From positions 1-61,121 of the forward strand of contig JAGVLW010000013.1 of assembly GCA_020054105.1 (NCBI GenBank): a DNA stretch of 61,121 nt, given 5' to 3'. A program made the position numbers and the translations under genes. Below are positions 1-37,867 of this stretch, in pieces. Source of the stretch: Alphaproteobacteria bacterium. GTDB taxonomy: Bacteria; Pseudomonadota; Alphaproteobacteria; Rickettsiales; SXRF01. The notes under the pieces are model-generated. The model saw only the letters and a list, made by a program, of their open reading frames with translations. It searched no databases and had not been told where the DNA came from. Position 1 is the first letter of the stretch; the number at the start of each line of letters is the position of its first letter.

Positions 1-35
1 AAGTAATATAAAACTATAATTGCATATAAGTATTT

Positions 36-902
36 TCAGGCAGAAACATAATCTAAAAATTCTTTCACACGCTCCTTTGAAGTAAATGTACCTTTTATTT
101 CGTCATTATTAGAAAACACTACTATCACTTCATATTTTTGAAAGTCACCTGCAACTTTGTCAGCTTTAAATCCATCGATAAACTGTAACGCCTCTCCAAT
201 AGAGCTAAAAGTATTGGAATCGCCAAATAAAGGTAGAACTACTACACGCTTAATTACTCTATCTAATTTCTTTCTAAGGCTTGTAAAAAAATCCTGAAAT
301 ATTTTTCCATTGGCATCAAACAAGTGCTGCTTAAGAGCATCTCTTTTTGGGTTTGTTAGGGATTCAATCTGGCAGATGCAGCGTGCAAACTCACGATCTG
401 CCGTCTCTTCATCAAAAGAAGCATTAATACCAACGGCCTTAAAAGCTTCGACGATAGTCTCGTATGGAAGGTAAACAACATCAAATCCGACAGATTTTAG
501 CTGATCCAAAGATCCCTTAGTGAACACACCAGCCAACACGGCTCCTAGAAACGGTTGATCGCATTCATATTTTTCTGCAATCGGCAGAATAGCGCCTTGA
601 ATTTCCTGCGCCTTGTTTCTGGAGTGTTTTGTATAGCGTCTCCATGCCGCTTCAATGAACGCAACAGGTCGTCCACGTTTTTCTACGGCACCATCTTTTT
701 CAATGACAAAATCAAGATCATGAGCATTGCCGTATTTATCTTCCCAGTTAACCTTTGCTCCCTTGCGAACATTTTTGCGTTCACCATGCCTATCTAAATA
801 TAATCCTCGTTCGTCACAAAATTTCAGCAACACAGGAAGTAGAATTTCTTCCAACAGATTGCCAATGATTTGTCCAAACCTATGTGAAGGAGACTCTGCC
901 AT
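36..902 (-). CDS. Putative type II restriction endonuclease (PD-(D/E)xK-like)
   Basis: 288 aa, AT-rich, 4 bp downstream of a DNA methyltransferase on the same strand. The segment DLDFVIE...AFIEAAW resembles a PD-(D/E)xK catalytic core. Specificity unknown. Confidence 0.6.
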   Translation of the reverse strand: MAESPSHRFGQIIGNLLEEILLPVLLKFCDERGLYLDRHGERKNVRKGAKVNWEDKYGNAHDLDFVIEKDGAVEKRGRPVAFIEAAWRRYTKHSRNKAQEIQGAILPIAEKYECDQPFLGAVLAGVFTKGSLDQLKSVGFDVVYLPYETIVEAFKAVGINASFDEETADREFARCICQIESLTNPKRDALKQHLFDANGKIFQDFFTSLRKKLDRVIKRVVVLPLFGDSNTFSSIGEALQFIDGFKADKVAGDFQKYEVIVVFSNNDEIKGTFTSKERVKEFLDYVSA

Positions 903-906
903 AATA

Positions 907-2226
907 TTATCTTTTTACCCAAAGATACCCTTCCTTGAGCGGTACACGATGTTTACGGTTCTTCCATTTGATATTCCGATCACGAATTTTCTCGAATGTC
1001 CAAGAGCTAAACCCTGCGTCAACGGCTAATTCACCAAGCCATCTTTCAGCAGGAACGTGAATACCATAAGGCGCAGAGTCACCAATTACAAAACATACTG
1101 CCGCATCATTGGTGCAAAGCGGCAATAATGCTTGCCATGTTTTTGCTAAATCAACGAAGTATGCGGCCACCATTGTATGGTAGGTTTTTTTCCCTCCTTT
1201 GGTCTCTCGTATGTCTTGAAGATCAGTGCATACTGCAGTCAATTCATGTCTGATCGCTCTCACAGCCGGATCAGCTAAGAGATCACCTAACACTAATTTT
1301 TCTGCGGCACTGTGTTGAGAACAAGACCTTATAAGGCGATGGCGTACGGATTTCTGTAAATCACCCCAACCTTTTATTTCACCCCAAAATGTCATTTCAA
1401 GTCGAGTTGCATCTGCATAATCATAATTATTTGGGTATGGAGGTGATGTAAGAACGAGTTTGACTCTGCCCTTTATACTGCTGAGGGAATTAAGGTCTCT
1501 TGCATCACAGAACTCTAGTCTTGTATCTGCAATCGAACGTTGTCGTTTGGTATTCTGAATATCTTCACAAAAAAGCTTTATTCTTGCCATAAAAGCGGTA
1601 AAGGGATCTATCACTCGGGCTTTGGTTTTATTTGGCAAAATATATTGCCATTGTGCGGTGCCTGCTCCGCTGCATTCGCGCAGGATAGCCGTAATAGCAA
1701 GCCAAAGCAGTTCATTTGAATTTTTTGTAGCGCCATATGTATCGAGATAAGCGTCTCTGAGTGCCTCTAATCTAGCCAATGCGACGGGATTATAGCATTT
1801 TATAATCAACTCCGATTCTGATGCAGGTGCAGCTTTTAATATGGATTTTGCCTTTTCCAATAATTCTTCTGCATCTGAGAAGAGTCTTTCAGTAGGGATA
1901 TTCCAAGATAATTTTGCCTTAGCGATTCTACATATAAACGGGTGATATTCTGTGCCAGCCGAATTGACCCCGACTGATTGGGCTGCCAATAAAGTGGTGC
2001 CGGAACCAGTGAAAGGATCAAAAACATAGTCATCTGGTTCAAGATTCTGTTCCAATATCGTGCGCTTAACCCATTCAGCGGAGAATCCTGCCGAATATCT
2101 AAACCAGCGATGTATTGGAAGAGACATATTATCAGTAAAAGTACCGGCACGAGCCAACCTTAACCCCGCCTTCTTTGGCAGAACAACCGTCTCTTCTAAA
2201 AAATCAAATGTAGACTGCTGAAACAT
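907..2226 (-). CDS. DNA methyltransferase, N4-cytosine type (SPPY), motif I before motif IV
   Basis: SAM-binding motif FDPFTGSGTT precedes the catalytic motif LTSPPY. SPPY is typical of m4C MTases. ATG at 2226 (the track uses TTG at 2229). AT-rich compared with the rest of the window. Confidence 0.85.
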   Translation of the reverse strand: MFQQSTFDFLEETVVLPKKAGLRLARAGTFTDNMSLPIHRWFRYSAGFSAEWVKRTILEQNLEPDDYVFDPFTGSGTTLLAAQSVGVNSAGTEYHPFICRIAKAKLSWNIPTERLFSDAEELLEKAKSILKAAPASESELIIKCYNPVALARLEALRDAYLDTYGATKNSNELLWLAITAILRECSGAGTAQWQYILPNKTKARVIDPFTAFMARIKLFCEDIQNTKRQRSIADTRLEFCDARDLNSLSSIKGRVKLVLTSPPYPNNYDYADATRLEMTFWGEIKGWGDLQKSVRHRLIRSCSQHSAAEKLVLGDLLADPAVRAIRHELTAVCTDLQDIRETKGGKKTYHTMVAAYFVDLAKTWQALLPLCTNDAAVCFVIGDSAPYGIHVPAERWLGELAVDAGFSSWTFEKIRDRNIKWKNRKHRVPLKEGYLWVKR

Positions 2227-2321
2227 CAATAAAATCCCCTTAATTTACGAGCATATACCAGCCATTTATTTTAACAAGCGCATATACCCCATTCTGTTAG
2301 AAAGATGAAAAAACAGCCAAC

Positions 2322-2382
2322 CTCATTTCCGGATGAGTAATTACCTCCGAAGGAGGTAATAAAATTGTCCGCCGACAATTTT
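2322..2382. other. Three back-to-back hairpins between the EVE gene and the MTase
   Basis: CTCAT-ttccgg-ATGAG (2322-2337), ATTACCTCC-gaa-GGAGGTAAT (2340-2360), AAAATTGTC-cgcc-GACAATTTT (2361-2382). Confidence 0.6.
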
Positions 2383-2406
2383 GACGGCGCAGGCCTTATT
2401 GCTGCC

Positions 2407-2826
2407 TTATTTTATTCCGCCCATCGCGCAAATAAATTGCCATTGCGCTTGCGTTACCGGTTGAACGGATAGGCGGGCGGAAGTTATAAGCGCCATTTTG
2501 GCCAGGCTCAGCTCGGCTTTGACATGGGCCAGCGTGACCGGCTTTGCCAGGGATTTTATCGCCTTGATATCGACTGCTACCCACGGCTCGCCGGCCTTGG
2601 CGGTGGGATCGGGATAATGCCCGCGAACGATCTCGACGATGCCGACAATTTCCTTGCCTTCATTCGAATGATAAAAAAATCCGCGGTCGCCGCGCTTCAT
2701 CGCCATCAAATTTTGTTTGGCAAGATGGTTACGCACGCCGCTCCAGAAAGTGCCATTGGAGCCGGCGGCCAACTGCATGTCCCATGACCAGCTGGAAGGT
2801 TCGGATTTAAAAAGCCAATATTTCAT
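2407..2826 (-). CDS. EVE domain-containing protein
   Basis: N-terminus MKYWLFKSEP and motifs WSGVRNHLA, GDRGFFYHS and RLSVQPVT are EVE (PUA-like) family signatures. ATGA overlap with the upstream gene. Confidence 0.92.
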   Translation of the reverse strand: MKYWLFKSEPSSWSWDMQLAAGSNGTFWSGVRNHLAKQNLMAMKRGDRGFFYHSNEGKEIVGIVEIVRGHYPDPTAKAGEPWVAVDIKAIKSLAKPVTLAHVKAELSLAKMALITSARLSVQPVTQAQWQFICAMGGIK

Positions 2827-3404
2827 GGTGTCGCCGGCGGGGTCGTGGGCGTGGCATTGAGAATGGTGGGCGGCTTGCGAAACAGCTTATATTGCACTTC
2901 GTCGCCGGGCGCAATGGCGAGCGATTCGCTGGCGCCGCCTTTTAGAAACAGGAAAGCCAGGATCGGGCTGGCGGGATAAATATCTTCCTGCAATTCCGAC
3001 AGGTTGATATTGGGCAGTATCTGCGTGATTTTGCCCTCGCGGTTGACAAATAATATATCCAGCGGCGAATATTGCGTCGCCGGCGAGATCGGCGCGACGG
3101 TAGGAACGGCGAAAACTATCAATATGCCGCTTTTTTCCGACGGGCTGCTTAAATTGAACCAGCCTTTCTGGTTGTAGAGGCTTGCCGCATCGCGTACTTC
3201 CACATCGAAAATCAGGTTCGCGTTTGCGGTTGCCTGTCCTTGCGGCAGCCACGGCAACACCGGCTGTGCCGGTTCGGATATGTGTTTTCTGGCAATGATG
3301 ATATGGGTGCGCGTATAGGTCAGCGGCAGGGATTCATCGGCCATCGCCGCGCCGGGAATGACCAGGGCCAGGAAAAGCAGGGCTTTTGAAACGACGCGCA
3401 TCAT
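2823..3404 (-). CDS. DUF192-like exported protein (divergent paralog)
   Basis: Start moved to ATG 3404 (ATGA overlap with the upstream stop). Signal peptide MMRVVSKALLFLALVIPGAAMA. PLDILFVNREGKI and LAIAPGDEV match the DUF192 motifs PLDMIFID..GKI and IKVGDRI of its neighbour. Confidence 0.7.
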   Translation of the reverse strand: MMRVVSKALLFLALVIPGAAMADESLPLTYTRTHIIIARKHISEPAQPVLPWLPQGQATANANLIFDVEVRDAASLYNQKGWFNLSSPSEKSGILIVFAVPTVAPISPATQYSPLDILFVNREGKITQILPNINLSELQEDIYPASPILAFLFLKGGASESLAIAPGDEVQYKLFRKPPTILNATPTTPPATP

Positions 3405-3862
3405 GGCTTGAAATACTCGCTGATTATCCGGTCGCCGACCTTGATGTGTTTCTCCGCCGCCGTGCCGGCGATAACCTCCAATACTCCGTGCGCGGGCTTT
3501 ATGGAAGAGATAACCGTTTTGGAATAGGGTTCGGTATTGGCCGCGATATGCACGATTTTCCCGGCGGCATCGATGAAAATCATATCCAACGGCAACTTCG
3601 TGTCTTGCATCCACATGGTGATTTCATGTTCGCCGGAAAATATGAACAGCATCCCGCGATCTTTTTCCAGTTGTTGGCGGTGCTTGAGCCCATATTGCTG
3701 CTGGCGGGGGGTAAGGGCGAGCTCGACATCGTAGGGGTAACTATACGCCGATGTTTTTATGGTGACCTTGCCGGTGGTGAATTGCGGGGGGGACGTATCG
3801 CCGCCAAGCCATATCAAGGCGACTACCATAGTCAATAACAGGAGCTTAATGATGATGCGCAT
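3401..3862 (-). CDS. DUF192 domain-containing protein
   Basis: YGLKHR, GMLFIF, MWMQDTKLPLDMIFID, VLEVIAG and IKVGDRI are DUF192 signatures. N-terminal hydrophobic anchor. Confidence 0.9.
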   Translation of the reverse strand: MRIIIKLLLLTMVVALIWLGGDTSPPQFTTGKVTIKTSAYSYPYDVELALTPRQQQYGLKHRQQLEKDRGMLFIFSGEHEITMWMQDTKLPLDMIFIDAAGKIVHIAANTEPYSKTVISSIKPAHGVLEVIAGTAAEKHIKVGDRIISEYFKP

Positions 3863-3944
3863 AATTATGACAGTTTGATGAATTTTACGGCGATTTCATG
3901 GAAAAAACTAGGACATCCCCTGGTTTTTATATATAATAAATTTC

Positions 3945-4967
3945 ATGAGCACGATACGTTTTTTTAGCGGGTCGAGAGAGTTGCGCAAGGGCGGCATCGC
4001 TTCCGAGCAAATGCGCTTTGAGATCCAGAAAAAGGGCAAGCTGCCCGCCGGCGAGCGTTACAAGCGCATGCTCAAGAAGAAGCTGGAAGAAAATAAGCAA
4101 AAAGTCTATGGCGGGCAGGGGCAGGGATTTTCCCTTTCGCAGCCGATCGTGCGCAAGATGTCCAAGCGCACCGAAAATACCCTGAAGGAAATAGCCGCCA
4201 GGAAAGCGGCCAAAGAAGCCAAGGCCATGCGCAAAATGGTGGTGGTGACGCCGCGCGTTTACCCTAACGGGCGCATCACGCAAAAGGGCCAAATATATGA
4301 CATGGTGGGTAATTCGGTCGCCAGGGTCAATACCAAAAACGGCAAGATCCAGACGCAATGGGGCACTTATATCGGCAAATACAAACCGAAATCCTATTTC
4401 ACCGACATCAATATCCAAAACGCCATCAACCTCCACAGCCCGTATTTTATCCAGCAGCGCCGGCTCCAACAGCAAGGCGTGAACCCGGTGCTGGTGCATG
4501 GGCCGATGGGAGCGGCGGAGACCGTCAACATCTACGGCAAGCAAAGCCAGGAAGCAGCGCCGCTTACCTATGAAAACACCTATGGCAGCAACCCGATCGG
4601 CCCGCGGCAGAACATTGGCGTGACCGCCTGGGGCGCCGCCAGCGACAACGTCTGGGGAACCTTCGCCGACAATGCCTGGGGCCAATCCGCCGATAACGTC
4701 TGGGGCACCAACAGCAGCGACGTTTGGGGCGGCATCGGCCCGGGCAACCTATGGGGCATGCGCGGCCCGCATATCTGGGGAACCGGCAGCGGCAAGAACT
4801 ATATCAAAGGCATCAGCAACGCCATCGCCGCCCTGTTCGGATTCTCCACCAAGAAGAACCGCGAATCGCTTGCCACCTACCGCGCCTCGCGTGGCTCCGG
4901 CGGCGGTGCACGGACCGCAGCCCCGGCAACGCGTGCGCCCAGCGCCCCGGCTCCTACCCGCCGCTAA
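3945..4967 (+). CDS. Hypothetical basic protein with tandem 8-residue WG repeats
   Basis: 340 aa ORF with host-like codon usage, Lys/Arg-rich N-terminus and 7 regularly spaced WG motifs (SDNVWG, ADNAWG, ADNVWG...). TATAAT at 3932-3937 lies 7 nt before the ATG. Confidence 0.8.
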   Translation: MSTIRFFSGSRELRKGGIASEQMRFEIQKKGKLPAGERYKRMLKKKLEENKQKVYGGQGQGFSLSQPIVRKMSKRTENTLKEIAARKAAKEAKAMRKMVVVTPRVYPNGRITQKGQIYDMVGNSVARVNTKNGKIQTQWGTYIGKYKPKSYFTDINIQNAINLHSPYFIQQRRLQQQGVNPVLVHGPMGAAETVNIYGKQSQEAAPLTYENTYGSNPIGPRQNIGVTAWGAASDNVWGTFADNAWGQSADNVWGTNSSDVWGGIGPGNLWGMRGPHIWGTGSGKNYIKGISNAIAALFGFSTKKNRESLATYRASRGSGGGARTAAPATRAPSAPAPTRR

Positions 4968-5731
4968 TTCTTTTTTTCGCGATGTACCGCAAACGGCGAG
5001 AAGGCCTGCTGCGTCGGCATGATTTCCACGCGGTTGATGTTCACATGCGCCGGTTGCGTCACCGTCCATAGAATAGTATTGGCGATGTCCTCGGCGGAAA
5101 GCGGCTGCATGCCGGCATAGACGCTTTCGGCTTTCGAAGCATCGCCGCGAAAGCGCACGGTGGAAAATTCCGTATCGCACATGCCCGGCTCGATATTGGT
5201 GACGCGGATGTTTTTGCCCAGCAGATCGGCGCGCAAATTCAGGGAAAATTGGGTGATGAACGCCTTGGTCGCGCCGTAGACATTGCCGCCGGGATAGGGA
5301 TAGGTGCCGGCGATAGAGCTTAGATTGACGATGTGGCCGCCATTGCGCGCGATCATGCCCGGCAGCAACGCATGGGTGCAATACAGCACGCCGTTGATGT
5401 TGGTTTCGACCATCGTTTCGACGTCGTCGAGCTTCTGTTTTTCATACGGCTCCAGCCCCAGCGCCAGCCCGGCATTGTTGATGAGAATGTCGATCTTGGA
5501 AAATGCCGCGGGCAGGGAGGCAATCGCTTTTTCCACTGCCGCCTTGTCGCGCACGTCGAGCATAACCACATGCACTGCGCCGCCCAATTCTTTTTGCAAC
5601 TCATCAAGCCGGTCGGCGCGCCTGCCGCTGGCCACAACCTTCGCGCCGTGCGACACGAACAGCTTCGCGCAGGCCAGCCCGAAACCGGCGGTTGCGCCGG
5701 TGATGAATACGATCTTTCCTGAAAGCATCAT
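4964..5731 (-). CDS. SDR family NADP-dependent oxidoreductase (YdfG-like)
   Basis: TGATAGFG nucleotide-binding motif, NNAGLA, catalytic YGATK, and RVTNIEPG. ATG at 5731. Confidence 0.9.
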   Translation of the reverse strand: MMLSGKIVFITGATAGFGLACAKLFVSHGAKVVASGRRADRLDELQKELGGAVHVVMLDVRDKAAVEKAIASLPAAFSKIDILINNAGLALGLEPYEKQKLDDVETMVETNINGVLYCTHALLPGMIARNGGHIVNLSSIAGTYPYPGGNVYGATKAFITQFSLNLRADLLGKNIRVTNIEPGMCDTEFSTVRFRGDASKAESVYAGMQPLSAEDIANTILWTVTQPAHVNINRVEIMPTQQAFSPFAVHREKKN

Positions 5732-5741
5732 ATGCAAGAAT

Positions 5742-5832
5742 AAGTCGTTAGTTGATAGTCGTTAGTCGTTAGTATATGCATGGGCACAGCAGAATAACAA
5801 GCTATAGACTAATGACTCACGACTAACGACTT
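5742..5832. repeat. Heptamer-built palindromic element (AGTCGTT family), copy 1
   Basis: Left arm agtcgtt-agttgat-agtcgtt-agtcgtt-ag. The right arm gactaatgactcacgactaacgactt is its imperfect reverse complement. Fills the divergent SDR/ccmC intergenic region. Confidence 0.85.
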
Positions 5833-5834
5833 TT

Positions 5835-6545
5835 ATGCATACATTCGCTTCCCCCTCCCGTTTCCTCCGCATTGCCGACAGGCTGTTGCCGTGGCTTGTA
5901 GCGGCGACGGTCGGGCTGCTGGCTTTCGGACTTTTACAGGCGCTCTTCATCTCGCCGCCGGATTACCAGCAGGGCGATAGCGTGCGCATCATGTATGTGC
6001 ATGTGCCGAGCGCCTGGATGAGCCTGATGATTTATTCGGTCATGGCGGCTTCGAGCGCGTCGTTTCTCATCTGGAAACATCCGCTGGCGGATATTGTCGC
6101 ACGCGTATCGGCGCCCATCGGCGCGGGCTTTACCCTGATTACGCTGGTGACCGGCTCGCTGTGGGGCAAACCGATGTGGGGCGCCTATTGGGTGTGGGAT
6201 GCGCGGCTGACTTCGGTGCTCATCCTGTTTTTTCTTTATATCGGCTATATCGCCCTGTCCGACGCCTATGCCACCATCGAGCGCGGCAAGAAAATCTGCG
6301 CCGTGCTGGCGCTGGTCGGGTTCGTCAATATTCCGGTCATCCGCTTTTCGGTGGATTGGTGGAATACGCTGCACCAGCCCGCCAGCATCGTCCGCTCAGG
6401 CGGCATCGCCATCGACCCGTCCATGCTGGCGCCGTTATTTAGCATGGGCGCGGCGTTTTTCTGCCTCTATGCGGTTTTGTTGATCGTCAGGGTCAAAACC
6501 GCCCTGCTGGAGCAGAAAATTCGGCGCTTGCAGTTTAGTCGTTAG
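5835..6545 (+). CDS. ccmC: Heme ABC transporter permease CcmC
   Basis: PPDYQQGDSVRIMYVHVP, WWD-domain motif WGKPMWGAYWVWDARLTS, and WWNTLHQ. Confidence 0.95.
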   Translation: MHTFASPSRFLRIADRLLPWLVAATVGLLAFGLLQALFISPPDYQQGDSVRIMYVHVPSAWMSLMIYSVMAASSASFLIWKHPLADIVARVSAPIGAGFTLITLVTGSLWGKPMWGAYWVWDARLTSVLILFFLYIGYIALSDAYATIERGKKICAVLALVGFVNIPVIRFSVDWWNTLHQPASIVRSGGIAIDPSMLAPLFSMGAAFFCLYAVLLIVRVKTALLEQKIRRLQFSR

Positions 6546-6621
6546 TTGCAAACCACATGAACACGCGATATATAGGCGGTCCGATTCATTCCTAACGACT
6601 AAGGACTAACGGCTAATGACT
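6535..6621. repeat. Heptamer-built palindromic element (AGTCGTT family), copy 2
   Basis: Left arm ttagtcgttagttg overlaps the ccmC stop. Right arm ctaacgactaaggactaacggctaatgact overlaps the fdxA ATG. Confidence 0.8.
6546..6574 (+). promoter_or_regulatory. Putative sigma70 promoter of fdxA
   Basis: TTGCAA-N17-TATATA, located between the arms of the heptamer palindrome. Confidence 0.55.
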
Positions 6622-6948
6622 TTCGTTGTCACCGACGCCTGCATCAAATGCAAATATACCGACTGTGTGGAAGTCTGCCCGGTGGACTGTTTCTATGAGG
6701 GCGAAAATATGCTCGTCATTAACCCCGACGAATGCATCGATTGCGGCGTGTGCGAGCCGGAATGCCCGGTGGAGGCCATTCTTCCGGAGTCTGACGAGAT
6801 GCTCAAATGGGTGGAGCTCAACCGCGAATATGCCGCCAAATGGCCCAATATCACCGTGAAGAAGCCCGGCCCGGCCGATGCCGACAGCCATAAGGGCGAG
6901 GCGGGCAAGTTCGAAAAATACTTCAGCCCGGCGCCCGGCGGCAGCTGA
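6616..6948 (+). CDS. fdxA: Ferredoxin FdxA (7/8Fe)
   Basis: [29 protein letters not shown] and [12 protein letters not shown]. Upstream of carD, as is usual in alphaproteobacteria. Confidence 0.95.
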
Positions 6949-7124
6949 TTCGACAAAAACCGGCCTTCCTACAACTAATTCCTTTTTTTTTCGTTAATTT
7001 TGTGGTATGTTGATGCTCGTTTTAACCAAGCACGCTACCTAATGGTGTGTTTTGTATAAACATATACCAGATGTAGTTAACCGATGCGTAATTTTGCATC
7101 ACTTCTACCATAAGGGATCAAACT

Positions 7125-7970
7125 ATGAGCAAGAAGTCAGCAAAGAAAAAAATAGCTAAAAAATCCGTAACGGGAAAAAAAGTCGCTGTAAAAGCGAAGA
7201 AAAAGGTTGTTAAGCCGTCGGTTAAGAAGAAAGCCATCGTGAAGCAGGTAAAGAAGCCCGCTCCGGCCAAGAAAATAGCCGCCAAAAAACCCGTCGCTAA
7301 AAAACCGATCGCCAAGCCGGTTGTCGTAAAAAGCAAAGTGAAAAACAAGGTGGTTGCCAAGCCCGTGGCAAAGCCGGTTGCAAAACCCGTCATTGCCAAG
7401 AAAGCGCCGGACCTCAAAGTCGTGGTCCAGCCGAAAATATTATACAAGGTCGGCAACTACGTGGTGTATCCGACGCACGGCGTCGGCAAGATCATGGCTG
7501 AAGAAACCCAGATGATCGGCGATATCGAGCTGCGCATGCTGGTCATCTCGTTCGAGAAAGACAAGATGACCCTACGCGTGCCGGTCTCGCGCGCCGGTGC
7601 TGCCGGTTTGCGTCCGATCAGCGGCGTCGAGCAGATGAAAAAAGTATTCATCACGCTGAGGAGCAAAGCCAAGATCAGCCGCGGCATGTGGTCGCGCCGT
7701 GCCCAGGAATACGAAACCAAGATCAATTCCGGCAACATCATCTTCATCTCGGAAGTCGTCCGCGACCTCCATCAGAATGTCGATCAGTCGGAACGCTCTT
7801 ATTCCGAGCGCATGATCTATGAATCGGCGCTCGCGCGCCTGGTAGGCGAATTGGCCGCTGCCGAAGGCACCGACCATAAAACCGCTACCGACAAGCTGAT
7901 GAAGCTCCTGCGCGCCAAGGTCGCGGCTGCGAATGCAGCGGCTGCCGAAGCGGCGAAAGAAGCGGCTTAA
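7125..7970 (+). CDS. carD: CarD/CdnL family transcription factor with long Lys/Ala/Pro-rich N-terminal extension
   Basis: CarD motifs YVVYPTHGVG, MTLRVP, WSRRAQEYETKINSG and SYSERMIYESA, preceded by about 100 aa of histone-H1-like low-complexity sequence. Confidence 0.9.
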   Translation: MSKKSAKKKIAKKSVTGKKVAVKAKKKVVKPSVKKKAIVKQVKKPAPAKKIAAKKPVAKKPIAKPVVVKSKVKNKVVAKPVAKPVAKPVIAKKAPDLKVVVQPKILYKVGNYVVYPTHGVGKIMAEETQMIGDIELRMLVISFEKDKMTLRVPVSRAGAAGLRPISGVEQMKKVFITLRSKAKISRGMWSRRAQEYETKINSGNIIFISEVVRDLHQNVDQSERSYSERMIYESALARLVGELAAAEGTDHKTATDKLMKLLRAKVAAANAAAAEAAKEAA

Positions 7971-7989
7971 GAAAAATCGAAATGACAAG

Positions 7990-8018
7990 AAAAAGCGGCC
8001 TTCGGGCCGCTTTTTTTT
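7990..8018 (+). terminator. Rho-independent terminator after carD (possibly bidirectional)
   Basis: AAAAA-GCGGCC-ttcg-GGCCGC-TTTTTTTT. Confidence 0.9.
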
Positions 8019-8034
8019 ACAAGTAAGATAGATT

Positions 8035-8601
8035 ATGAAAACAGCCGTGTTAAATAAAGCCTCTTTAACGAATTTCATTAAATATCTGCGTATTCTTGCA
8101 GGCGTAGGAGGATCTCCCAGTGAAAATTTTGAGCAGGATTTCTTTGCATTGCCTGCTGGAGAACAAAGAATTGCATGTATCGTAGCTCCTATTATGTCAA
8201 GAGCCTTCGATAAGGTTGCAACCACTCTTGAATCCAGGCAGACCCTAACGCATGGCGAGTTTGAATCAATGACAATGGCTGCGGTGAATGCTGAAACCAG
8301 GCAGTTTTCTTTAAATACAAGAAACGAAAAAATTCTAATTGAATTATCACGGTTGGTAAGAGAACAATCTCCTGAATCAAAAGCACTGTTAGAAGAAGGA
8401 GAAGCATATATACAGGAGCGATATCCTGATGCATCTATCCAACAAAGAGCCAGTCTAGCATTGGTACAAAAATCAGTAGGCGCGACTCGACAGATGTTTG
8501 ATAGTATTTCGAGCGTTTTTAATGAAATTGCCGGGGAGCAAGCTCATCAACCGCCCCCTGGCGACCACCCCTCAAGGACCCGTTTCAAGAAACGAAAATA
8601 A
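8035..8601 (+). CDS. Hypothetical protein (AT-rich orphan)
   Basis: 188 aa ORF with no recognisable motif and basic C-terminus RTRFKKRK. Confidence 0.65.
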   Translation: MKTAVLNKASLTNFIKYLRILAGVGGSPSENFEQDFFALPAGEQRIACIVAPIMSRAFDKVATTLESRQTLTHGEFESMTMAAVNAETRQFSLNTRNEKILIELSRLVREQSPESKALLEEGEAYIQERYPDASIQQRASLALVQKSVGATRQMFDSISSVFNEIAGEQAHQPPPGDHPSRTRFKKRK

Positions 8602-8729
8602 TTAGGCCGTTTTTTGTGGTTGTCATAATTCTTTCACATTACTTAGCCCCTGGAATGACTTATAATTAGCCCATGCTAAAGACATTGACGCTTTATCCCA
8701 AAGAAAAACCGACCATTCTCAACAAGTAG

Positions 8730-9239
8730 ATGGCCATAGGTGGTTTGCTCGGCTCCCTGTTCGGCCCAATTTTCGGGACGGCGGCGGGCATGATGATCGG
8801 CGGATTCATCGGCAAAAACCGCATGGAAGTCGAGACTACCCAGGGCCGTAAAGTCAGCGATACGCCCTCATTTTGGAATAAGGACACGTTGCTTGGCGGG
8901 CTTATCGGCCTGGTTTCGGGCGGACTGGTGGGAATGGTGATCGCCGCCGCCGGAATAGCGATTGCAGCCTCGGGAGGTCCGATAGCAGGGCTTTCGCTCG
9001 CGGCTGCCGGATTGCTCGCCGGAACCGCGGTGGCGACTTTTGCCGGCGCCGTCATCGGCGGCAAACACGGGCAAAAACGCCTGCTGGACGATTACCGCCA
9101 GGCGGCGTTGCAGGAGCAGCAACGGCAACCGGCAGCGACGCCGGATTTCAGCGTCGAGCTCGATATGCAACCCGGCAAAAGCTTCGCGCAAGACATCGAA
9201 CTTCAGCGCAAGCAAGCGGCAACGCAAAGAACGCTATAA
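8730..9239 (+). CDS. Hypothetical membrane protein with glycine-zipper-like helices; possibly starts at 8673 with an in-frame TAG
   Basis: Two Gly-rich hydrophobic repeats (GGLLGSLFG..., GGLIGLVSGG...). An in-frame upstream ATG at 8673 is separated from it by TAG 8727-8729. Confidence 0.7.
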   Translation: MAIGGLLGSLFGPIFGTAAGMMIGGFIGKNRMEVETTQGRKVSDTPSFWNKDTLLGGLIGLVSGGLVGMVIAAAGIAIAASGGPIAGLSLAAAGLLAGTAVATFAGAVIGGKHGQKRLLDDYRQAALQEQQRQPAATPDFSVELDMQPGKSFAQDIELQRKQAATQRTL

Positions 9240-9240
9240 C

Positions 9241-12150
9241 TCACGCCACCTTCCGGCCCTTTTTCAGCATCGGCTTCAAATATTCGCCGGTGACGCTTTC
9301 CTTGTGTTTGGCGATGTCTTCCGGCGTGCCGCTGGCGACGATCCGGCCGCCTTTATTGCCGCCGCCGGGGCCGATATCTAGTATCCAGTCGGAGGTCTTG
9401 ATGACGTCGAGATTATGCTCGATCACCAGCACCGTGTTGCCGGCATCGACCAGCGTATGCAGCACGCCAAGCAGCTTCTTGATGTCGTCGCTATGCAACC
9501 CGGTGGTCGGCTCGTCGAGAATATAGAGCGTGCGGCCGGTGGCGCGCTTGGACAGTTCCTTGGCAAGCTTGATGCGCTGCGCCTCGCCGCCGGAAAGCGT
9601 CGTCGCCGACTGGCCGATGGCTATATAGCCGAGCCCGACCTCCTGCAGCGCCACGAGCTTTTCGCGGATGGAAGTCTGCGCGGTGAAAAACGCCGCGCCC
9701 TCATCGACGGTCATCGCCAATACTTCGGAAATCGATTTGTCCTTATATTTGATGTCGAGCGTCTCGCGGTTATAGCGTTTGCCGTGGCAGACGTCGCATT
9801 TGACATAGACGTCGGGCAGGAAATGCATCTCGATTTTGATGAGCCCGTCGCCCTGGCAGGCCTCGCAGCGCCCGCCCTTGACGTTGAACGAGAAACGCCC
9901 GGCCTGATAGCCGCGCGCTTTGGCTTCGGGCAGCGCCGCGTACCAGTCGCGGATGGGGGTGAAGGCGCCGGTATAGGTGGCCGGGTTCGAGCGCGGCGTG
10001 CGGCCGATGGGCGACTGGTCGATCTCGATGATCTTGTCGATGAACTCGAGGCCCGAGATGCTGTCATGCGCGCCGGGCATGTCGCGGCTGCCATGCATGC
10101 GTTTGGCGATGGCCTTGTAGAGCGTCTCGATCACCAGCGACGACTTGCCGCCGCCGGACACGCCGGTGACGCAGGTGAAGGTCGCCAGCGGAATCTCGGC
10201 CTTGACGTTTTTGAGGTTGTTGGCGCGCGCGCCGTTGATGACGATTCTTTTTGTCTTGTGAATCGGGCGGCGCGTTTCCGGCACGGCGATGAATTTCGCG
10301 CCGCTTAGATATTGCCCGGTCAGGCTGTTCTTGGTGTTCATCACCTGCTGCGCCGTGCCCTGGGCGACGATATGCCCGCCATGAATGCCGGCGCCGGGGC
10401 CGATATCGATCAGATGGTCGGCATGGCGCATCGTGTCTTCGTCATGCTCAACGACGATTACGGTGTTGCCAAGGTCACGCAGGTGCCGCAGCGTGTGCAA
10501 CAGGCGCGCATTGTCGCATTGATGGAGGCCTATCGATGGTTCATCCAATACATAGAGCACGCCGGAAAGCCCGGAGCCGATCTGCGAGGCGAGGCGGATG
10601 CGCTGCGATTCGCCGCCTGAAAGCGTGCCGGCCTCGCGCGACAGCATCAGGTAATCGAGCCCGACATTCATCAGGAATTTGAGCCGCTCGCAAATTTCCT
10701 TGAGGATCTTCTCGGAAATCTGCTGGTGCTTTTTGGAAAGTTTTTTCTCCAGCCTGGCGAACCAGTCATGCGCGGCGGTGATGGTAAAATGCGTTACCTC
10801 GCCGATATGCAGCCCGTCGATCTTGACGCAAAGCGATTCCGGCTTGAGGCGAAAGCCCTTGCAGGTTTCGCAGGGATGCTCGTTCTGGTATTTGGCGAAT
10901 TCCTCGCGCACATTGTCGCTGGTCAGCTCGCGGTAGCGCCGCTCCAGGTTGGGGATGACGCCCTCGAACGGTTTTTGCACGGTAAAATGGCGCGAGCCGT
11001 CATTATAGGTCATGCGCACTTCTTCGTCGCCGGAGCCGTGGAGAATGATGTGCCGCACTTTTTCCGACAGCTCCTTAAACGGCGTATGCAGGCTGAACTG
11101 AAAATGCTTCGCCAGCGATGCCAGCGCATCCTGGAAAAACCGCGTATTGCCCGCCCACGGCATTCCGCCCCACGGCACGATGGCGCGGTCGGCCAGTGTC
11201 TTATTGCGGTCGGGAATAATCAAGTCGACGTCGAATGCCGATTGCGTTCCCAGCCCGTCGCAGGCCGGGCAGGCGCCATACGGGCTGTTGAAGGAAAACA
11301 GCCGCGGCTCGATCTCCGACAGGGTGAAGCCGCTTACCGGACAGGCAAACTTGCTGGACATGGTGAAGGTAACGGGTAACGGGTTACGGGTTACAGATTT
11401 ATTTTTATCTGTGTCCTGTTTTCCGTTACCTGTTACCTCTACTCGAACCAGTCCTTCTCCCAGCCCCAGCGCCGTCTCGATGGAATCCGCCAGCCGGTTG
11501 CCCAGTTCTTTATTGACCACGATGCGGTCGACGACCACTTCGATTTCGTGTTTCTTGTTTTTATCCAGTGTCGGCAATTCGTCGGCTTCGTAGAGCTTGC
11601 CGTTGATCTTGAAGCGTTGAAAACCCTTCTTTTTAAGCTCGGCGAATTCCTTGCGGTACTCGCCCTTATGGCCGCGCACTACCGGCGCCAGCAGCATGAG
11701 CTTCGTGCCTTCGGGCAATTCCATGACGCGGTCGACCATCTGCGACACGGTCTGGCTCTCGATAGGCAGGCCGGTGGCGGGCGAATAGGGAATGCCGATG
11801 CGGGCATAGAGCAGGCGCAGGTAATCGTAGATTTCGGTGACGGTGCCGACCGTCGAGCGCGGGTTGCGCGAGGTGGTTTTCTGGTCGATGGCAATGGCCG
11901 GCGAAAGCCCGTCGATGGATTCGACGTCGGGCTTGTCCTGGATGTTGAGGAACTGGCGGGCATAAGACGACAGCGACTCGACATAGCGGCGCTGGCCCTC
12001 GGCGTAAATCGTGTCGAACGCCAGGCTGGATTTGCCGGATCCGGACGGGCCGGTGATGACCACCAGCTTGTTGCGCGGAATCTCGACGTCGATATTCTTG
12101 AGGTTATGTTCCTTGGCGCCGCGGATGGTGATGTATTCGTCTTTTTTCAT
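9241..12150 (-). CDS. uvrA: Excinuclease ABC subunit UvrA
   Basis: Two ABC ATPase modules ([18 protein letters not shown]), LSGGESQR and LSGGEAQR signatures, zinc-finger Cys motifs. Confidence 0.98.
11368..11437. repeat. In-frame heptamer palindromic element inside uvrA (GGTAACR family)
   Basis: 70 nt: a 29-nt arm of 4 heptamers, a 12-nt AT-rich loop, and an inverted 29-nt arm. Encodes [23 protein letters not shown]. Confidence 0.85.
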
Positions 12151-12257
12151 GGATTCCCTTGTTTTTTTAAAGCGGCGGATGGTATCAAATAATCGCTGGC
12201 GTGTAACGTACTTTTACGCTTATATGGTGCGGAATTAATATTTTTTAAAGAGATCTA

Positions 12258-12704
12258 ATGCCGCCCACCGCCGCCATAGACAGAAACAGCATTATCGCTG
12301 AGCTAAGAACGCGCGGCAGGCAGCTTGGCCGTGAGGGAATGACCCTCCTGATTAATAAGGCAGGAGTAAGCGGCGGCGATCCAGGTTCTGAAATGCCGCC
12401 CGTCAATCATCAGGCAGGCGAGTTTGGAAGCTTTGAAATGTCCTGGCCTTTGGCGGGCGGCGGTTTGCCGGAAATGATTAGAGACTACCTGATGCAGGAA
12501 GGAATCATTACCAGCACCGTAGCCGCTACCAGCTACACTGGCCGTACGGCTTGCCTGCAGTTAAGCAGCCCGCAACAGGTTGCGGCGGTGAAGGCATTAT
12601 TTGAAGAGGCGGGGTTCTGGGAACATATCGCCATGGTGGATATTAACAGGTCGCGCATCCCCAACCTGCTTGAGAATCCCTTTGCCAGCAAAGCGAGAAA
12701 ATAA
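12258..12704 (+). CDS. Hypothetical protein
   Basis: 148 aa orphan between uvrA and ssb. No recognisable motif. Confidence 0.6.
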   Translation: MPPTAAIDRNSIIAELRTRGRQLGREGMTLLINKAGVSGGDPGSEMPPVNHQAGEFGSFEMSWPLAGGGLPEMIRDYLMQEGIITSTVAATSYTGRTACLQLSSPQQVAAVKALFEEAGFWEHIAMVDINRSRIPNLLENPFASKARK

Positions 12705-12743
12705 TACAACAACCGATACGATTAACCTAAGAGAGGACATAAT

Positions 12744-13202
12744 ATGGCAGGCAGCGTAAATAAAGTGATTCTGGTGGGAAATCTGGGACGCGACCCGGAA
12801 GTGCGCTCAACGCAAGACGGCCGCGAAATCGCCAACCTGGCGATCGCCACCTCGGAATCGTGGAAAGATAAAAGCACCGGCGAGCGCAAGGAAAAAACCG
12901 AGTGGCACCGCGTGGTGATCTTCTCGGAAGGGCTGGTTGGCATCGCCAAGAATTACCTGAAAAAAGGCTCGAAAGTCTATGTTGAAGGCCAGCTGCAAAC
13001 GCGCAAATGGACCGACAAGGAAGGCCAGGAGAAATATTCCACGGAAGTGGTGCTGCAAGGCTTCGGCGCGACGTTGACCATGCTCGATAGCAAAGGCAGC
13101 AGCGGTGGCAGCAACGATAATGCGAGCTACAACCAGGACCGCGCCCCGGCGCCCGCTTCCAAACCCGCCGCCGAACTGCTCGACGACGAGATTCCGTTTT
13201 AG
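12744..13202 (+). CDS. ssb: Single-stranded DNA-binding protein
   Basis: [30 protein letters not shown] and C-terminal DDEIPF. Confidence 0.98.
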
Positions 13203-13220
13203 TCTCTTTTTCGCCGGATT

Positions 13221-13997
13221 ATGAGCATCATCACGGATGTAAGAACGCTGGCGATCATGCTATCCGCCTTTGTTCTGGCCGTGCTATGCATTTTGCCCGG
13301 CACGCGTGAGATTTTTCCTTTCTGGCTTATCGCTTCGGGTATGCATATCGCAGGCACGCTGTTTCACGAGCTGGGGCATAGCCTGTTTTTCTGGCTGGCG
13401 GGCATGCCATCTATTCCCATGATTTTTACGCTCTTCGGCGCCGACCAGGCTGGCGGCATGGCCATGACGTTTGAGCGCAGCTGGCTGTTGCAATGGCTGA
13501 TGTTCGCGGCGCTCGGCGGTTTCTGTTACTGGATAAGGCATCATTGGGAGCGCATGTTCATTCCCGCCGTGCTTTTCTCGCTCGTCGTCGCGGCGCTGGC
13601 CTTTACGCCGTACTACAAGGTGCTGCCGCTTTTCATGGGCCATGGCAGCGCGATTGTCATGGGCGGATTTTTCCTGTTCAGGGCGTGGATTTACCTCGAT
13701 GCGAGAAACGCTTTCGAGCGTTGGCTGAACGCATTTTTCGGCGCGTTCCTGGTATTATACAACATGCATTTCAGCTATAAGCTCATCGCCGAAGACGGCG
13801 CGCTGGCGCGTTACAGCGAGCATGTGGCGTTCGGCATCGGCCATAATGACTTTGTGAAAATAACCCACATTCTTCCTGTAAGTGTCCAGGGCGTCGCCGC
13901 CATCGCCATCTGCTTATGTCTGGCGGCGCTTGTGTTGTCAGCATGGTTGGCCGTGTTGCTGCGCAACGATTTCCCCGACAGCTACGAAACGCTTTAG
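13221..13997 (+). CDS. Membrane metallopeptidase, M50-like
   Basis: HELGH zinc motif within a TM segment, several TM helices, and a distal NDF motif. Confidence 0.6.
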   Translation: MSIITDVRTLAIMLSAFVLAVLCILPGTREIFPFWLIASGMHIAGTLFHELGHSLFFWLAGMPSIPMIFTLFGADQAGGMAMTFERSWLLQWLMFAALGGFCYWIRHHWERMFIPAVLFSLVVAALAFTPYYKVLPLFMGHGSAIVMGGFFLFRAWIYLDARNAFERWLNAFFGAFLVLYNMHFSYKLIAEDGALARYSEHVAFGIGHNDFVKITHILPVSVQGVAAIAICLCLAALVLSAWLAVLLRNDFPDSYETL

Positions 13998-14461
13998 CGG
14001 TAGATGACTACCGTTCCAGCGATGTAATCGTGCAGCGCGCGTTTCCTGGGCGTAAAAGCCGCCATCACATAGCCCATCAATAAAATGAGAGTTGAAATGA
14101 GATGCCCAACCTCTCTAAAAATTGCTCGAAACAGCCCGACTCTCTCGTAATCTTTAGTGGCCACCATGATGCCTACCACCTTTTTGCCGAGCGTGCCCTG
14201 CATTGGGGAAGCTGTGAGGATAATGTTGTAAAGAATAAACAGAAGAGAAAACAATAAATTGATGAGGCTGTCGTCTTCCTTCGCAGTATCATTTTCCAAG
14301 CTTGCAGTCATTTCCTGCACAAAAGCAGCATCCGGGAATAATTTAATAATCAAGACGAAGAAAATAGTTCCCATGACTAGTAAAAAAATACCGTCCAGTA
14401 TCACGGCGGCTAATCTGATCCAAAAGCCCGCAGGGCGTGGCTGATACATAGTTGCATTCAT
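13994..14461 (-). CDS. RDD family membrane protein
   Basis: AGFWIRLAAVILD, GTLGKKVVGI, RAIFRE and ALHDYIAGTVV signatures. Confidence 0.9.
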   Translation of the reverse strand: MNATMYQPRPAGFWIRLAAVILDGIFLLVMGTIFFVLIIKLFPDAAFVQEMTASLENDTAKEDDSLINLLFSLLFILYNIILTASPMQGTLGKKVVGIMVATKDYERVGLFRAIFREVGHLISTLILLMGYVMAAFTPRKRALHDYIAGTVVIYR

Positions 14462-14570
14462 GGCAAACCCTTTCCATTGGTTATCGGATTTTCCGATTTA
14501 TAACAGCAAGGTATTGAGAAAGATTTAATGATTGCGGGCAGCGGTTACGCGCGTTCCTTAAGATGGACGG

Positions 14571-15122
14571 TCACGTCCTGCCGCGCTCGGCGAAGATCAT
14601 GGAAGATTGGCGGGCGCTTTGCCTGCAGATGTCTTTTATCGCCTGGACGGCGCCGTCTATGTGTTTGTTTTCGATGCTGTAGGTAAATACATAACGGCCG
14701 CCGAAGTAGTCTTTCATTTTCTCTTTGTCGAATGTCTGATTGAACCCTTCGCCATCCTCCGTTCGCCTGACTGCCTTCAATTGCCGTTTTTCCGCATTTT
14801 CAAACAGCTCATAGGCGCTATCGAGTGTGGAAGCGACGATACGAACGCCGTTTTTTATAAAAATCTGATCGAGCTGCTCTTTAAGTTGTGCCCTGTCTAA
14901 TGGCGCAAGATCTTCTTCCGCCAACGGCTGCACTTCTATTTTTATAGTAAAGATGGGCTTTTTTTTAAGTTCTTCTTTATTGATCGTGATTTCTACGTCT
15001 TCTTTTCCACCATCCTGAGAACGACGAACAACCTGCGTCCATTTCCGGTCTAAGAAACCCTTATTATTGACGACGCCACATTCAATGTCGCAATAGCAGT
15101 CGAAAAGCAGCATGGGAATCAA
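14571..15122 (-). CDS. Hypothetical protein
   Basis: About 180 aa orphan coupled to the upstream hydrolase (start TTG 15122 or ATG 15113). C-terminus FAERGRT. Confidence 0.6.
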   Translation of the reverse strand: MIPMLLFDCYCDIECGVVNNKGFLDRKWTQVVRRSQDGGKEDVEITINKEELKKKPIFTIKIEVQPLAEEDLAPLDRAQLKEQLDQIFIKNGVRIVASTLDSAYELFENAEKRQLKAVRRTEDGEGFNQTFDKEKMKDYFGGRYVFTYSIENKHIDGAVQAIKDICRQSARQSSMIFAERGRT

Positions 15123-15805
15123 TCTCTCGGCAGCTGCCGGCGTTTGCGGTCGGGGCGAACTTTGCGTTTCTGCTTGAAGTCGGCCAGGCGCTTGCCGACA
15201 TACTCGCTGACGACGTTGCCCATATCTTCCTCGACGCCGCGATAGTAATGATCGGCGCCGGCGATGAGCTGATAGTCGACCTGCGTGCCGAGCTTATGGG
15301 CGAGCTTGCTGACCACTTCTTCCGAAACTACATCGTCCTTATCGCCCTGGGTGATGAGGCCGGCGGCGGGGCAGGGGGAGAGAAAAGAAAAATCATAGAG
15401 ATTAGCGGGCGGCGAAACGGCGACGAAGCCTTCCAGTTCGGGGCGGCGCATCAGCAGTTGCAGCGAGATCCAGGCGCCGAAAGAAAATCCGGCGATCCAG
15501 CAGGTGGGCGCATCGGGATTTTGTTGTTGCAGCCAGTCCAGCGCGGTGGCCGCATCCGACAGCTCGCCGACGCCTTCGTCGTATTTTCCCTGCGATTTGC
15601 CGACGCCGCGGAAATTGAACCGCAGCACGGAAAAGCCGTTCTGGGCAAAAATATGATAGAGCCGGTAAACCAGCTTGTTATTCATGGTGCCGCCGTAAAG
15701 CGGGTGGGGATGCAGCACCAGCACGATCGGCGCGCCTTTATGATCGCTATGGTGATAACGGCCTTCGATGCGGCCTTCGGAACCGTTAATAATGATTTCT
15801 GGCAT
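15119..15805 (-). CDS. Alpha/beta hydrolase (isc-associated family)
   Basis: HPHPLYGGTMNN, RFNFRGVG, nucleophile elbow GFSFG, and GADHY. Divergent from cysE-iscR, as usual in alphaproteobacteria. Confidence 0.9.
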   Translation of the reverse strand: MPEIIINGSEGRIEGRYHHSDHKGAPIVLVLHPHPLYGGTMNNKLVYRLYHIFAQNGFSVLRFNFRGVGKSQGKYDEGVGELSDAATALDWLQQQNPDAPTCWIAGFSFGAWISLQLLMRRPELEGFVAVSPPANLYDFSFLSPCPAAGLITQGDKDDVVSEEVVSKLAHKLGTQVDYQLIAGADHYYRGVEEDMGNVVSEYVGKRLADFKQKRKVRPDRKRRQLPRD

Positions 15806-15865
15806 GGTGTGTACGTTTTTTACTTGTAATAGGAACGTTTACATTGATCGGAATGGCGCGATATA

Positions 15866-15890
15866 TTACCCTGACCTATCAATTAGGTGC
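15866..15890. promoter_or_regulatory. Possible IscR/Rrf2 operator upstream of cysE-iscR
   Basis: TTACCCTGACCTATCAATTAGGTGC contains the imperfect dyad ACCTA..TAGGT and resembles type-1 IscR sites. Resemblance only. Confidence 0.3.
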
Positions 15891-15915
15891 GTAGTTATAT
15901 TGAATTTGGTGGTCA

Positions 15916-37771: not shown

Positions 37772-37867
37772 GCTATTGATATTTAATAATCCCATTTATG
37801 GAATTGTCACAGAAGCTTCATACTTGAGAGTATTTCTTTCTGCTAGAATCGGTAGGAATTATTTTTA

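Follow-up and report, generated by a model that had tools for sequence, protein, structure and literature searches.

Seven tryptophan-glycine (WG) motifs follow one another at intervals of eight or nine residues in a predicted protein of 340 amino acids, here denoted P0001, that is encoded near the start of contig JAGVLW010000013.1 of the Alphaproteobacteria bacterium assembly GCA_020054105.1. The locus raises the question of whether such an array serves the bacterium itself or is sent into another cell, and of whether it works as a flexible chain or as a folded structure. The original prediction, made from the letters of the contig, described P0001 as an orphan and proposed that it was either an effector translocated by a type IV secretion system (T4SS) to capture host Argonaute (AGO) or a self-assembling nucleic acid-binding protein.

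Here, we report an analysis of P0001, of its gene (the WG gene), and of their surroundings in the whole stretch of 61,121 nucleotides (nt) under study (the window), together with the distribution of the family in a sample of 151 genomes from the same Rickettsiales-like order of the GTDB taxonomy. The WG gene is a vertically inherited core gene of a flagellated, environmental Rickettsiales-like clade with genomes of 1.5-2.5 Mb. We tentatively favor the reading that P0001 is a resident polyanion-binding scaffold with an aromatic assembly tail, because its basicity is extreme and uniform across homologs, its basic domain is predicted to fold, its aromatic-glycine tail is family-wide, and the gene is inherited vertically in a housekeeping neighborhood. 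An orphan Argonaute-hook effector is not supported.

The WG gene and its product

P0001 is not an orphan. A word-indexed search with a cut-off of E<=0.01 yielded 134 homologs whose alignments cover practically the whole protein; identities among the 120 listed are 37-63%. All are unnamed or annotated as 'hypothetical' and come from metagenome-assembled genomes labeled Rickettsiales or Alphaproteobacteria bacterium. A profile search of 1.84 billion cluster representatives returned only 163 matches; the family is therefore real but narrow.

The WG gene is present in one copy in the 2.2-Mb genome (57% GC), and its codon usage, with a codon adaptation index (CAI) of 0.61 and a GC content at third codon positions (GC3) of 0.76, is native and resembles that of core genes. 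The CAI mostly follows GC3 and is middling, so that it only shows the gene to be native. A minus-strand open reading frame (ORF) of 252 codons overlaps the WG gene at 3927-4685; it was treated as a shadow frame because the conserved homologs belong to the plus frame.

The whole protein carries a net charge of +33, and 35 aligned homologs range from +23 to +36, whereas the array itself has a net charge of -3 and is flanked by basic blocks. Several features named in the original prediction stand: the lysine- and arginine-rich N-terminus, the basic C-terminus ending in RR, and the lack of a signal peptide, to which the lack of a transmembrane segment can be added (the highest Kyte-Doolittle mean over 19 residues is 0.62). 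The segments of the protein and the adjoining features are listed in Table 1.

Table 1. The WG gene, the segments of P0001, and adjoining features in the window
Feature	Position	Strand	Basis
Two tandem DUF192 (PF02643) genes with N-terminal hydrophobic segments; conserved divergent neighbors	2823..3862	-	Pfam E 5.5e-31 and 8.8e-7
Pho-box-like 16-bp direct repeat, TTCATCAAACTGTCAT, 11-bp register	3867..3882	-	62 nt upstream of the WG ATG, 5 nt before the ATG of DUF192a
Putative sigma-70-type promoter, AGGACA-16-TATAAT	3910..3937	+	Promoter scan, 10/12 matches; -10 box ends 7 nt before the ATG
Coding sequence of the 340 amino acid WG-array protein (P0001), including stop codon	3945..4967	+	ORF list, translation, 134 homologs
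Residues 1-97: conserved N-terminal peptide M-x-x-x-R-F-F-x-G-x-R, then three Lys/Arg-rich predicted helices, net +18	3945..4235	+	AlphaFold helices 18-28, 35-56, 74-97
Residues 98-178: three predicted beta-hairpins and two helices, core of the N-terminal domain	4236..4478	+	pLDDT 90-98
Residues 179-222: variable, indel-rich linker	4479..4610	+	Mean identity 24%, many alignment gaps, pLDDT <50
Residues 223-283: seven-unit octapeptide array, consensus T-x-A-D-N-V-[W/H]-G	4611..4793	+	Spacing, shuffle test, 24-nt DNA period, conservation
Residues 284-300: conserved predicted amphipathic helix G-x-N-Y-L...L-F-G	4794..4844	+	AlphaFold helix 286-297; hydrophobic moment 0.40-0.43; N285 invariant
Residues 301-340: basic tail rich in Arg/Ala/Pro/Ser, net +8, RR end	4845..4964	+	Alignment, charge count

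P0001 contains eight Trp residues, each followed by Gly, a number of WG motifs that was reached in none of 200,000 shuffles of its sequence. The eighth motif, at W139, lies outside the array; the other seven, at residues 229, 237, 245, 253, 261, 270, and 278, reproduce the predicted spacing of 8, 8, 8, 8, 9, and 8 residues, far beyond chance. All units fit the pattern phi-x-G-x5 (V/A/L/I, then W/H, then G, then five residues of any kind), six of them being eight residues long and one nine. The degenerate 24-bp DNA repeat of the original prediction is likewise borne out. Tandem Repeats Finder reports period 24 at 4628-4709 (3.4 copies, 67% matches), four 33-nt copies spaced 24 nt are 73-76% identical, and the autocorrelation of the array DNA is 0.56 at lag 24 and 0.18 at lag 8. 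An origin of the array from hairpin repeats of 7-8 nt was rejected, given the period of 24 and the lack of any 8- or 16-nt periodicity or inverted repeats in the array DNA.

The array is the best conserved part of the protein. Mean identity to the query is 66% over residues 223-283, compared with 52-60% over residues 1-56 and 73-178, and 24-30% in the two linkers and the C-terminal tail. Exactly seven units are found in all 36 aligned homologs, with hardly any indels. In these long forms, the Gly after each of the first five array Trp residues, N235, and N243 are invariant. Trp is replaced by His at units 1-4 in 2, 6, 8, and 3 of the 36 sequences, respectively, and by Phe or Tyr at units 6-7; N and G are thus better conserved than W, and the residues specific to the flanks of each unit are retained across species. 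As far as the alignment goes, the missing indels and the fixed number of units argue for a defined structure or a templated interface. In composition, the array is rich in G (23%), W (11%), N (10%), A (10%), S (8%), and D (7%), with L, I, and M together making up 9% and no Y or C.

In the metagenomic fragment P0254, about 19 nearly uniform octapeptides of the form S/D-N-I-L-W-G-T-S come after the C-terminal end of a subtilase (Peptidase_S8). This bacterial array of W-G-T octapeptides is an independent one and belongs to a presumably secreted protease; such units therefore occur elsewhere in bacteria.

Predicted structure

In an AlphaFold model of full-length P0001, built on the 36-sequence alignment, the predicted local distance difference test (pLDDT) exceeds 90 at residues 100-175, and helices are placed within residues 18-97 and 286-316; residues 190-283, the WG array included, stay at 31-45. 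A second model, of residues 1-180 from 50 long and short relatives, has a mean pLDDT of 85.7 and a predicted template modeling score (pTM) of 0.69, with three basic helices, three beta-hairpins (104-145), and two further helices. The models show the N-terminal 180 residues of P0001 as a folded domain of basic helices and three beta-hairpins without a known relative. Thus, the AlphaFold check suggested with the original prediction gave a divided answer, a confident N-terminal domain and an array that could not be modeled as a monomer. The predicted G-x-I-x-D-type beta repeats also found their place, as six short strands at 104-145 with pLDDT >90. Across the 50 family sequences, G109, G115, and G133 are invariant, and R5 and F7 of the N-terminal peptide are conserved in >=90% of long and short forms; the short-form version of this peptide, M-S-R-G-F-F-G-G, is of the same aromatic-glycine type as that of P0001.

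Foldseek found no match at E<=0.001 for the full P0001 model in the PDB, nor for the confident N-terminal model in the PDB and BFVD. P0001 has no meaningful match among Pfam, NCBIfam, and PDB sequences, and a profile of 50 relatives matched no PDB sequence. The best match in PHROGs was at E 0.05 and PADLOC gave none, so that P0001 fell into no known family of anti-phage defense or phage structural proteins in these two libraries. The only likeness of the N-terminal domain, and a faint one, is to DUF3659 (PF12396) and the beta-flower families (PF21784, PF21785), whose hairpin unit G-x-I-x-D-x-x-G-N-x-V-G recurs in the P0001 family. Weak matches to DUF3659 occur in 21 of 50 family members (best E 0.0033), and hhalign gives a 58% probability over 33 columns. 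P0001 itself does not match DUF3659 at E<=10, and all family scores lie below the Pfam thresholds; moreover, unlike DUF3659 and the beta-flowers, the P0001 family has only three hairpins, embedded between helices.

Distribution of the family and variation of its tails

The family is represented in 32 of the 151 sampled genomes. It occurs in all seven genomes of the GTDB family of the window (f1), in 6/7 of f9, 4/5 of f8, and 4/5 of f30, and it was not found in sampled families with small genomes, such as f19 (0/7). The count of 32 is a lower bound: in genome G010, the family profile missed a probable, highly diverged member, a 207 amino acid ORF (L062:1000-1623, minus strand) that is divergent from a DUF192 gene and ends in ...KKDDNGWW.

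All 32 positive genomes measure 1.5-2.5 Mb and contain flhA, a gene of flagellar export. Given that flhA is present in 90 of the 151 genomes, including 58 that lack the family, the link between the family and the flagellum is weak and confounded by phylogeny. VirB4 is near-universal (150/151 genomes, usually in the two copies that are a hallmark of the rvh T4SS), and the presence of a T4SS in the genome, which the original prediction took as an argument for an effector, therefore has no discriminating power. The taxonomic distribution, also proposed as a check, shows a narrow family and is uninformative as to a tie with the T4SS. In genome size, GC content, and flagella, the lineage of the window resembles the basal, flagellated, higher-GC Rickettsiales that are possibly free-living or extracellular (PMC9352585), and the rvh system of such basal Rickettsiales has been proposed to target other bacteria (PMC11077975).

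Outside the clade of the window, only the first ~170 residues match, in proteins of 190-270 amino acids. These short forms, from about ten GTDB families, have Gly/Ser/Asn-rich tails with phi-W-G, F-Y-G, or I-Y-G motifs. Nearly all carry aromatic-Gly motifs (for example, ...SIWG...GFWG...GGWW), and in many the final residues form an acidic-aromatic tip, as in DDNKGGGFWG and DDNNGGWW. One genus of the window's own GTDB family has five D-phi-W-G-R units with a period of eight residues. In the short forms of f30 (L040, L044, L047, L051), NPF motifs, as in DNPF...KFNPF, replace W-G, and these genomes lack DUF192. The alignments thus show that, across the order, a low-complexity tail with aromatic-glycine motifs comes after the N-terminal domain in every case; in the clade of the window, they show this tail to consist of the fixed seven octapeptides, the predicted amphipathic helix, and an Arg-rich end. 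The last residue is basic in 34 of the 36 long forms, and this basic tail is missing from the short forms.

Genomic neighborhood and promoter

The WG gene lies in conserved synteny with DUF192, a short-chain dehydrogenase/reductase (SDR) gene, ccmC, fdxA, carD, uvrA, and ssb. Nearly all long-form loci, and many loci with short forms in other families, have DUF192 in divergent orientation. DUF192 is, however, the more widespread of the two; it is present in 81 of the 151 genomes but absent from f30, which has the WG family, and where the WG family is missing it has other neighbors. A partnership inferred from phylogenetic profiles was accordingly rejected, since the distributions differ, and the link between DUF192 and the WG gene is one of synteny only.

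Other genes in this part of the window deserve mention in their own right. An EVE-domain gene (2407-2826) overlaps the second DUF192 gene by 4 nt and adjoins a type II restriction enzyme and methyltransferase pair (36-2229, minus strand; PADLOC E 3.9e-70 and 6.5e-125). The composition of this pair is foreign, with GC3 0.34 and CAI 0.25 compared with 0.76 and 0.61 for the WG gene. The CarD protein (7125-7970, plus strand) has an N-terminal extension of ~100 residues, rich in Lys, Ala, Val, and Pro and histone H1-like, which is a second very basic low-complexity segment in the window. Elsewhere in the genome of the window (G000), on contig C40 (positions 1-16000), extra ORFs appear to interrupt the S10/spc ribosomal protein cluster between rplC and rplN.

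In 18 of 21 orthologous loci, as at the putative promoter of the WG gene (Table 1), 6-8 nt separate the end of a -10 box from the ATG, and the long-form mRNA is therefore probably leaderless, whereas most short-form genes of other families have a normal AGGAG ribosome-binding site. Between the WG gene and DUF192 lies a direct repeat similar to the Pho box. With up to two mismatches, the 16-bp box has 26 copies in the genome compared with one for a reversed control, and a looser pattern, GTCAY-N-AAA-CTGTCAY, occurs at ~36 sites that are almost all intergenic (for example, C12:27264, C90:46142, and C103:17326). Most of the sites have a -10-like box 18-24 nt downstream. The adjoining genes include motB, fliE, the virB2 pilin gene, ppc, rpe, genes for GGDEF and STAS proteins, and two peptidase genes; among the box-adjoining proteins tested, 18 of 30 have no Pfam family, and none of these others without a Pfam match shares the basic or WG features of P0001.

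At the WG gene, the box is present upstream in 15 of the 21 orthologous loci, in five of them in the canonical orientation, 33-36 nt from the ATG, and in the other ten, including the window, inverted and 51-62 nt away. A perfect box also accompanies one short form from another family. A second box in the window (37795-37810) lies 58 nt upstream of an ORF for 175 amino acids (37868-38395, plus strand) without a Pfam match, with GC3 0.46 and CAI 0.34.

In its direct repeat, its 11-bp register, and its position 18-24 nt upstream of the -10 box at many promoters, that of virB2 included, the element is like a PhoB-dependent Pho-box promoter. It differs in that no phosphate-uptake gene was seen among the box-adjoining genes, and the genome encodes eight regulators of the OmpR family, all candidates for the regulator of the box. 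Secretion regulons tagged by the box of a regulator are exemplified by the PmrA boxes of Legionella and Coxiella.

Discussion

If P0001 is a resident polyanion-binding scaffold, the basic domain and the basic tail would keep it bound, within the bacterium, to a polyanion that is most likely RNA or DNA. The array of aromatic residues would then be an assembly or interaction module that engages itself or a conserved partner, either through multivalent 'stickers' on a flexible chain or by co-folding of several chains into an intertwined, VxGxxxxx-type beta-structure. Bound in this way, P0001 might act as a nucleic acid-bound scaffold, in the manner of glycine/aromatic-tailed RNA-binding proteins or of tails of the single-stranded DNA-binding protein (SSB) type. 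It would be translated from a leaderless mRNA which, in sister lineages, would be under a Pho-box-like activator site; the occurrence of the box at motB, fliE, virB2, and a GGDEF gene suggests that P0001 plays a part when the cell is motile or transmissive. The self-assembling nucleic acid-binding protein of the original prediction, still an inference, agrees with the net charge and the architecture.

Tails of this general type are found in glycine-rich RNA-binding proteins, in FUS-type proteins with low-complexity tails, and in bacterial SSB, whose tail has an acidic-aromatic DDDIPF tip. From general knowledge of such proteins, the P0001 family is similar in joining a folded basic domain to a Gly-rich tail with spaced aromatic residues, and the short-form tip DDNxGGWW is much like that of SSB. 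Unlike in these proteins, the N-terminal domain has neither the RNA recognition motif nor the oligonucleotide/oligosaccharide-binding (OB) fold, the array of the long forms is far more regular and conserved, and nucleic acid binding is putative.

Several observations weigh against a resident scaffold. The sequence-library and fold searches recognized no nucleic acid-binding fold or motif, and so extreme a basicity would also be in keeping with delivery into another cell. A box regulon that contains the T4SS pilin gene and 18 Pfam-less proteins out of 30 also fits secreted cargo. In the window, moreover, the box points to DUF192 rather than to the WG gene, being inverted and centered near -70, and the middling codon adaptation of the WG gene does not indicate high abundance.

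On a different account, which we consider doubtful, the array is a structural repeat whose folding requires an oligomer, a ligand, or a metal. One model is the triple-stranded beta-helix of T4 gp5, built from a VxGxxxxx repeat that is self-folding, only as an intertwined trimer (PMC4576200). P0001 shares with it the eight-residue period and the hydrophobic-x-Gly start of the unit, VWGTFADN, AWGQSADN, and VWGTNSSD all fitting phi-x-G-x5 and hence VxGxxxxx, and a regular ladder of polar D/N residues is possible. The strict register, the invariant G and N residues, the seven units almost free of indels, the highest conservation in the protein, and the recurrence of x-x-N-I-L-W-G-T octapeptides, ~19 of them, in the unrelated S8-peptidase fragment all speak for a structural repeat. 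The low pLDDT of the array, next to a confident N-terminal domain from the same 36-sequence alignment, would be expected because monomer AlphaFold cannot build an intertwined trimer. The product could then be a trimeric module, short and rigid, that displays a ladder of Trp and His on its surface and possibly belongs to a surface or exported structure linked with the flagellar or the secretion regulon.

Against this, matches to the gp5 and phi92 spikes (1wth, 3pqh) came from the low-confidence full-length model only, at a noise-level E of ~3, and seven units would give a helix of just ~3.4 nm. The inward-facing positions in the gp5 register would include Asp, the irregular Gly-rich tails of the short forms cannot form such a helix, and there is no signal peptide to account for export. 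P0001 is not homologous to gp5 in sequence and lacks partner domains of the OB-fold, lysozyme, or gp27 type; it has only seven units, with W/H instead of N/D at the second position. An oligomeric beta-helix overlaps with the resident scaffold as one possible mechanism of assembly.

Two further repeats bear comparison. The prion octapeptide PHGGGWGQ (PF03991) is also an eight-residue W-G unit, and some P0001 homologs have His at the W position; PF03991 matches three family members at E ~0.02, below threshold. Unlike the prion repeat, the array lacks the H-G-G-G metal-binding core and stands in an unrelated context. The beta-roll repeats of repeats-in-toxin (RTX) proteins (GGxGxDxUx, HemolysinCabind) have a period of nine, not eight, and gave no Pfam match.

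It is about as improbable as a structural repeat that P0001 is cargo of the T4SS, with the Arg-rich C-terminus as the export signal, the basic clusters serving nuclear or nucleic acid targeting, and the WG motifs (NPF in a sister family) mimicking short linear motifs of eukaryotes. The last 40 residues are unstructured in the model, carry a net charge of +8, and have a basic end in 34/36 long forms. Furthermore, the composition of the array equals the published preference of AGO hooks, and there is a bacterial precedent in HopT1-1, which binds AGO1 through GW motifs (10.1101/215590). The Pho-box-like site common to the WG gene and virB2, the many box-adjoining proteins without a Pfam family, and the remodeling of tails between lineages, with NPF in place of WG in f30, could be added.

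Other evidence points the other way. With a T4SS in 150 and the family in 32 of the 151 genomes, co-occurrence is uninformative. The basic tail is missing from the short forms, those of one genus in the window's GTDB family included; they end in ...WGNQI or ...GGWW. Single-copy, syntenic, with native codon usage, the WG gene behaves as a core gene, and its lineage is similar to basal Rickettsiales for which a free-living existence and a use of rvh against bacteria have been suggested (PMC9352585, PMC11077975). The box regulon extends to flagellar and metabolic genes (motB, fliE, ppc, rpe), and the conservation of whole octapeptides, the W-to-H replacements, and the fixed number of units are unlike AGO hooks (PMC2910046). 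A host-directed function of P0001 is not shown by these data.

Two narrower versions of secretion fare worse. It is quite improbable that P0001 is rvh cargo co-regulated through a Pho-box-like promoter code, with lineage-specific motif mimics, acting as a 'Trp-hook' effector that captures Argonaute-like or other proteins with Trp pockets in a protist host. Binding of host Argonaute in particular, as a special case of T4SS cargo, is more improbable still. Like the Ago-hook proteins (GW182/TNRC6, NRPE1 and SPT5L of plants, potyviral P1, and HopT1-1 of Pseudomonas syringae), P0001 has several W-G motifs in a stretch that is rich in G/N/S/A/D, poor in L/I/M/Y/C, and unmodeled by the structure predictor. 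AGO hooks are preferentially composed of W and G, followed by N, S, A, and D, with L, I, M, Y, and C depleted, and only their W/G residues and overall composition are conserved (PMC2910046). The predicted hook thus holds as to composition and fails as to the pattern of conservation: in hooks, the number and spacing of units drift, whereas in P0001 the whole octapeptide, its register, and the seven units are fixed, and W is often H. Judged from its sequence, the array resembles a module for assembly or interaction more than it does an Argonaute hook.

Scarcely credible, finally, is a chance or slippage-derived low-complexity stretch without a function of its own, which the conservation data refute: the DNA has no 8- or 16-nt periodicity or inverted repeat, its copies are just 62-76% alike and yet the peptide is kept in 36/36 homologs with position-specific residues, and the shuffles never reach eight WG.

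Implications

The WG gene deserves a name as a new family, which combines an N-terminal domain without relatives in Pfam or the PDB with a family-wide aromatic-glycine tail. The family would be part of the core genome of those Rickettsiales-like lineages that have flagella and larger genomes and stand near the transition from free-living to host-associated life. Its Trp/His-Gly array is unusual in being too conserved for a typical disordered hook and yet unmodeled as a monomer. If the Trp-hook effector were real, it would be the first outside plant pathogens and would come from the lineage nearest to the point where rickettsial host association began; if the array folds into a trimer by itself, the VxGxxxxx beta-helix would extend beyond the spikes of phages and secretion systems. 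Should P0001 instead be a sticker array on a nucleic acid-binding domain, as the preferred reading of a resident scaffold allows, it would be a bacterial analog of eukaryotic low-complexity scaffolds. The link of the WG gene to a Pho-box-like regulon that includes flagellar and T4SS genes provides a concrete handle on that regulon.

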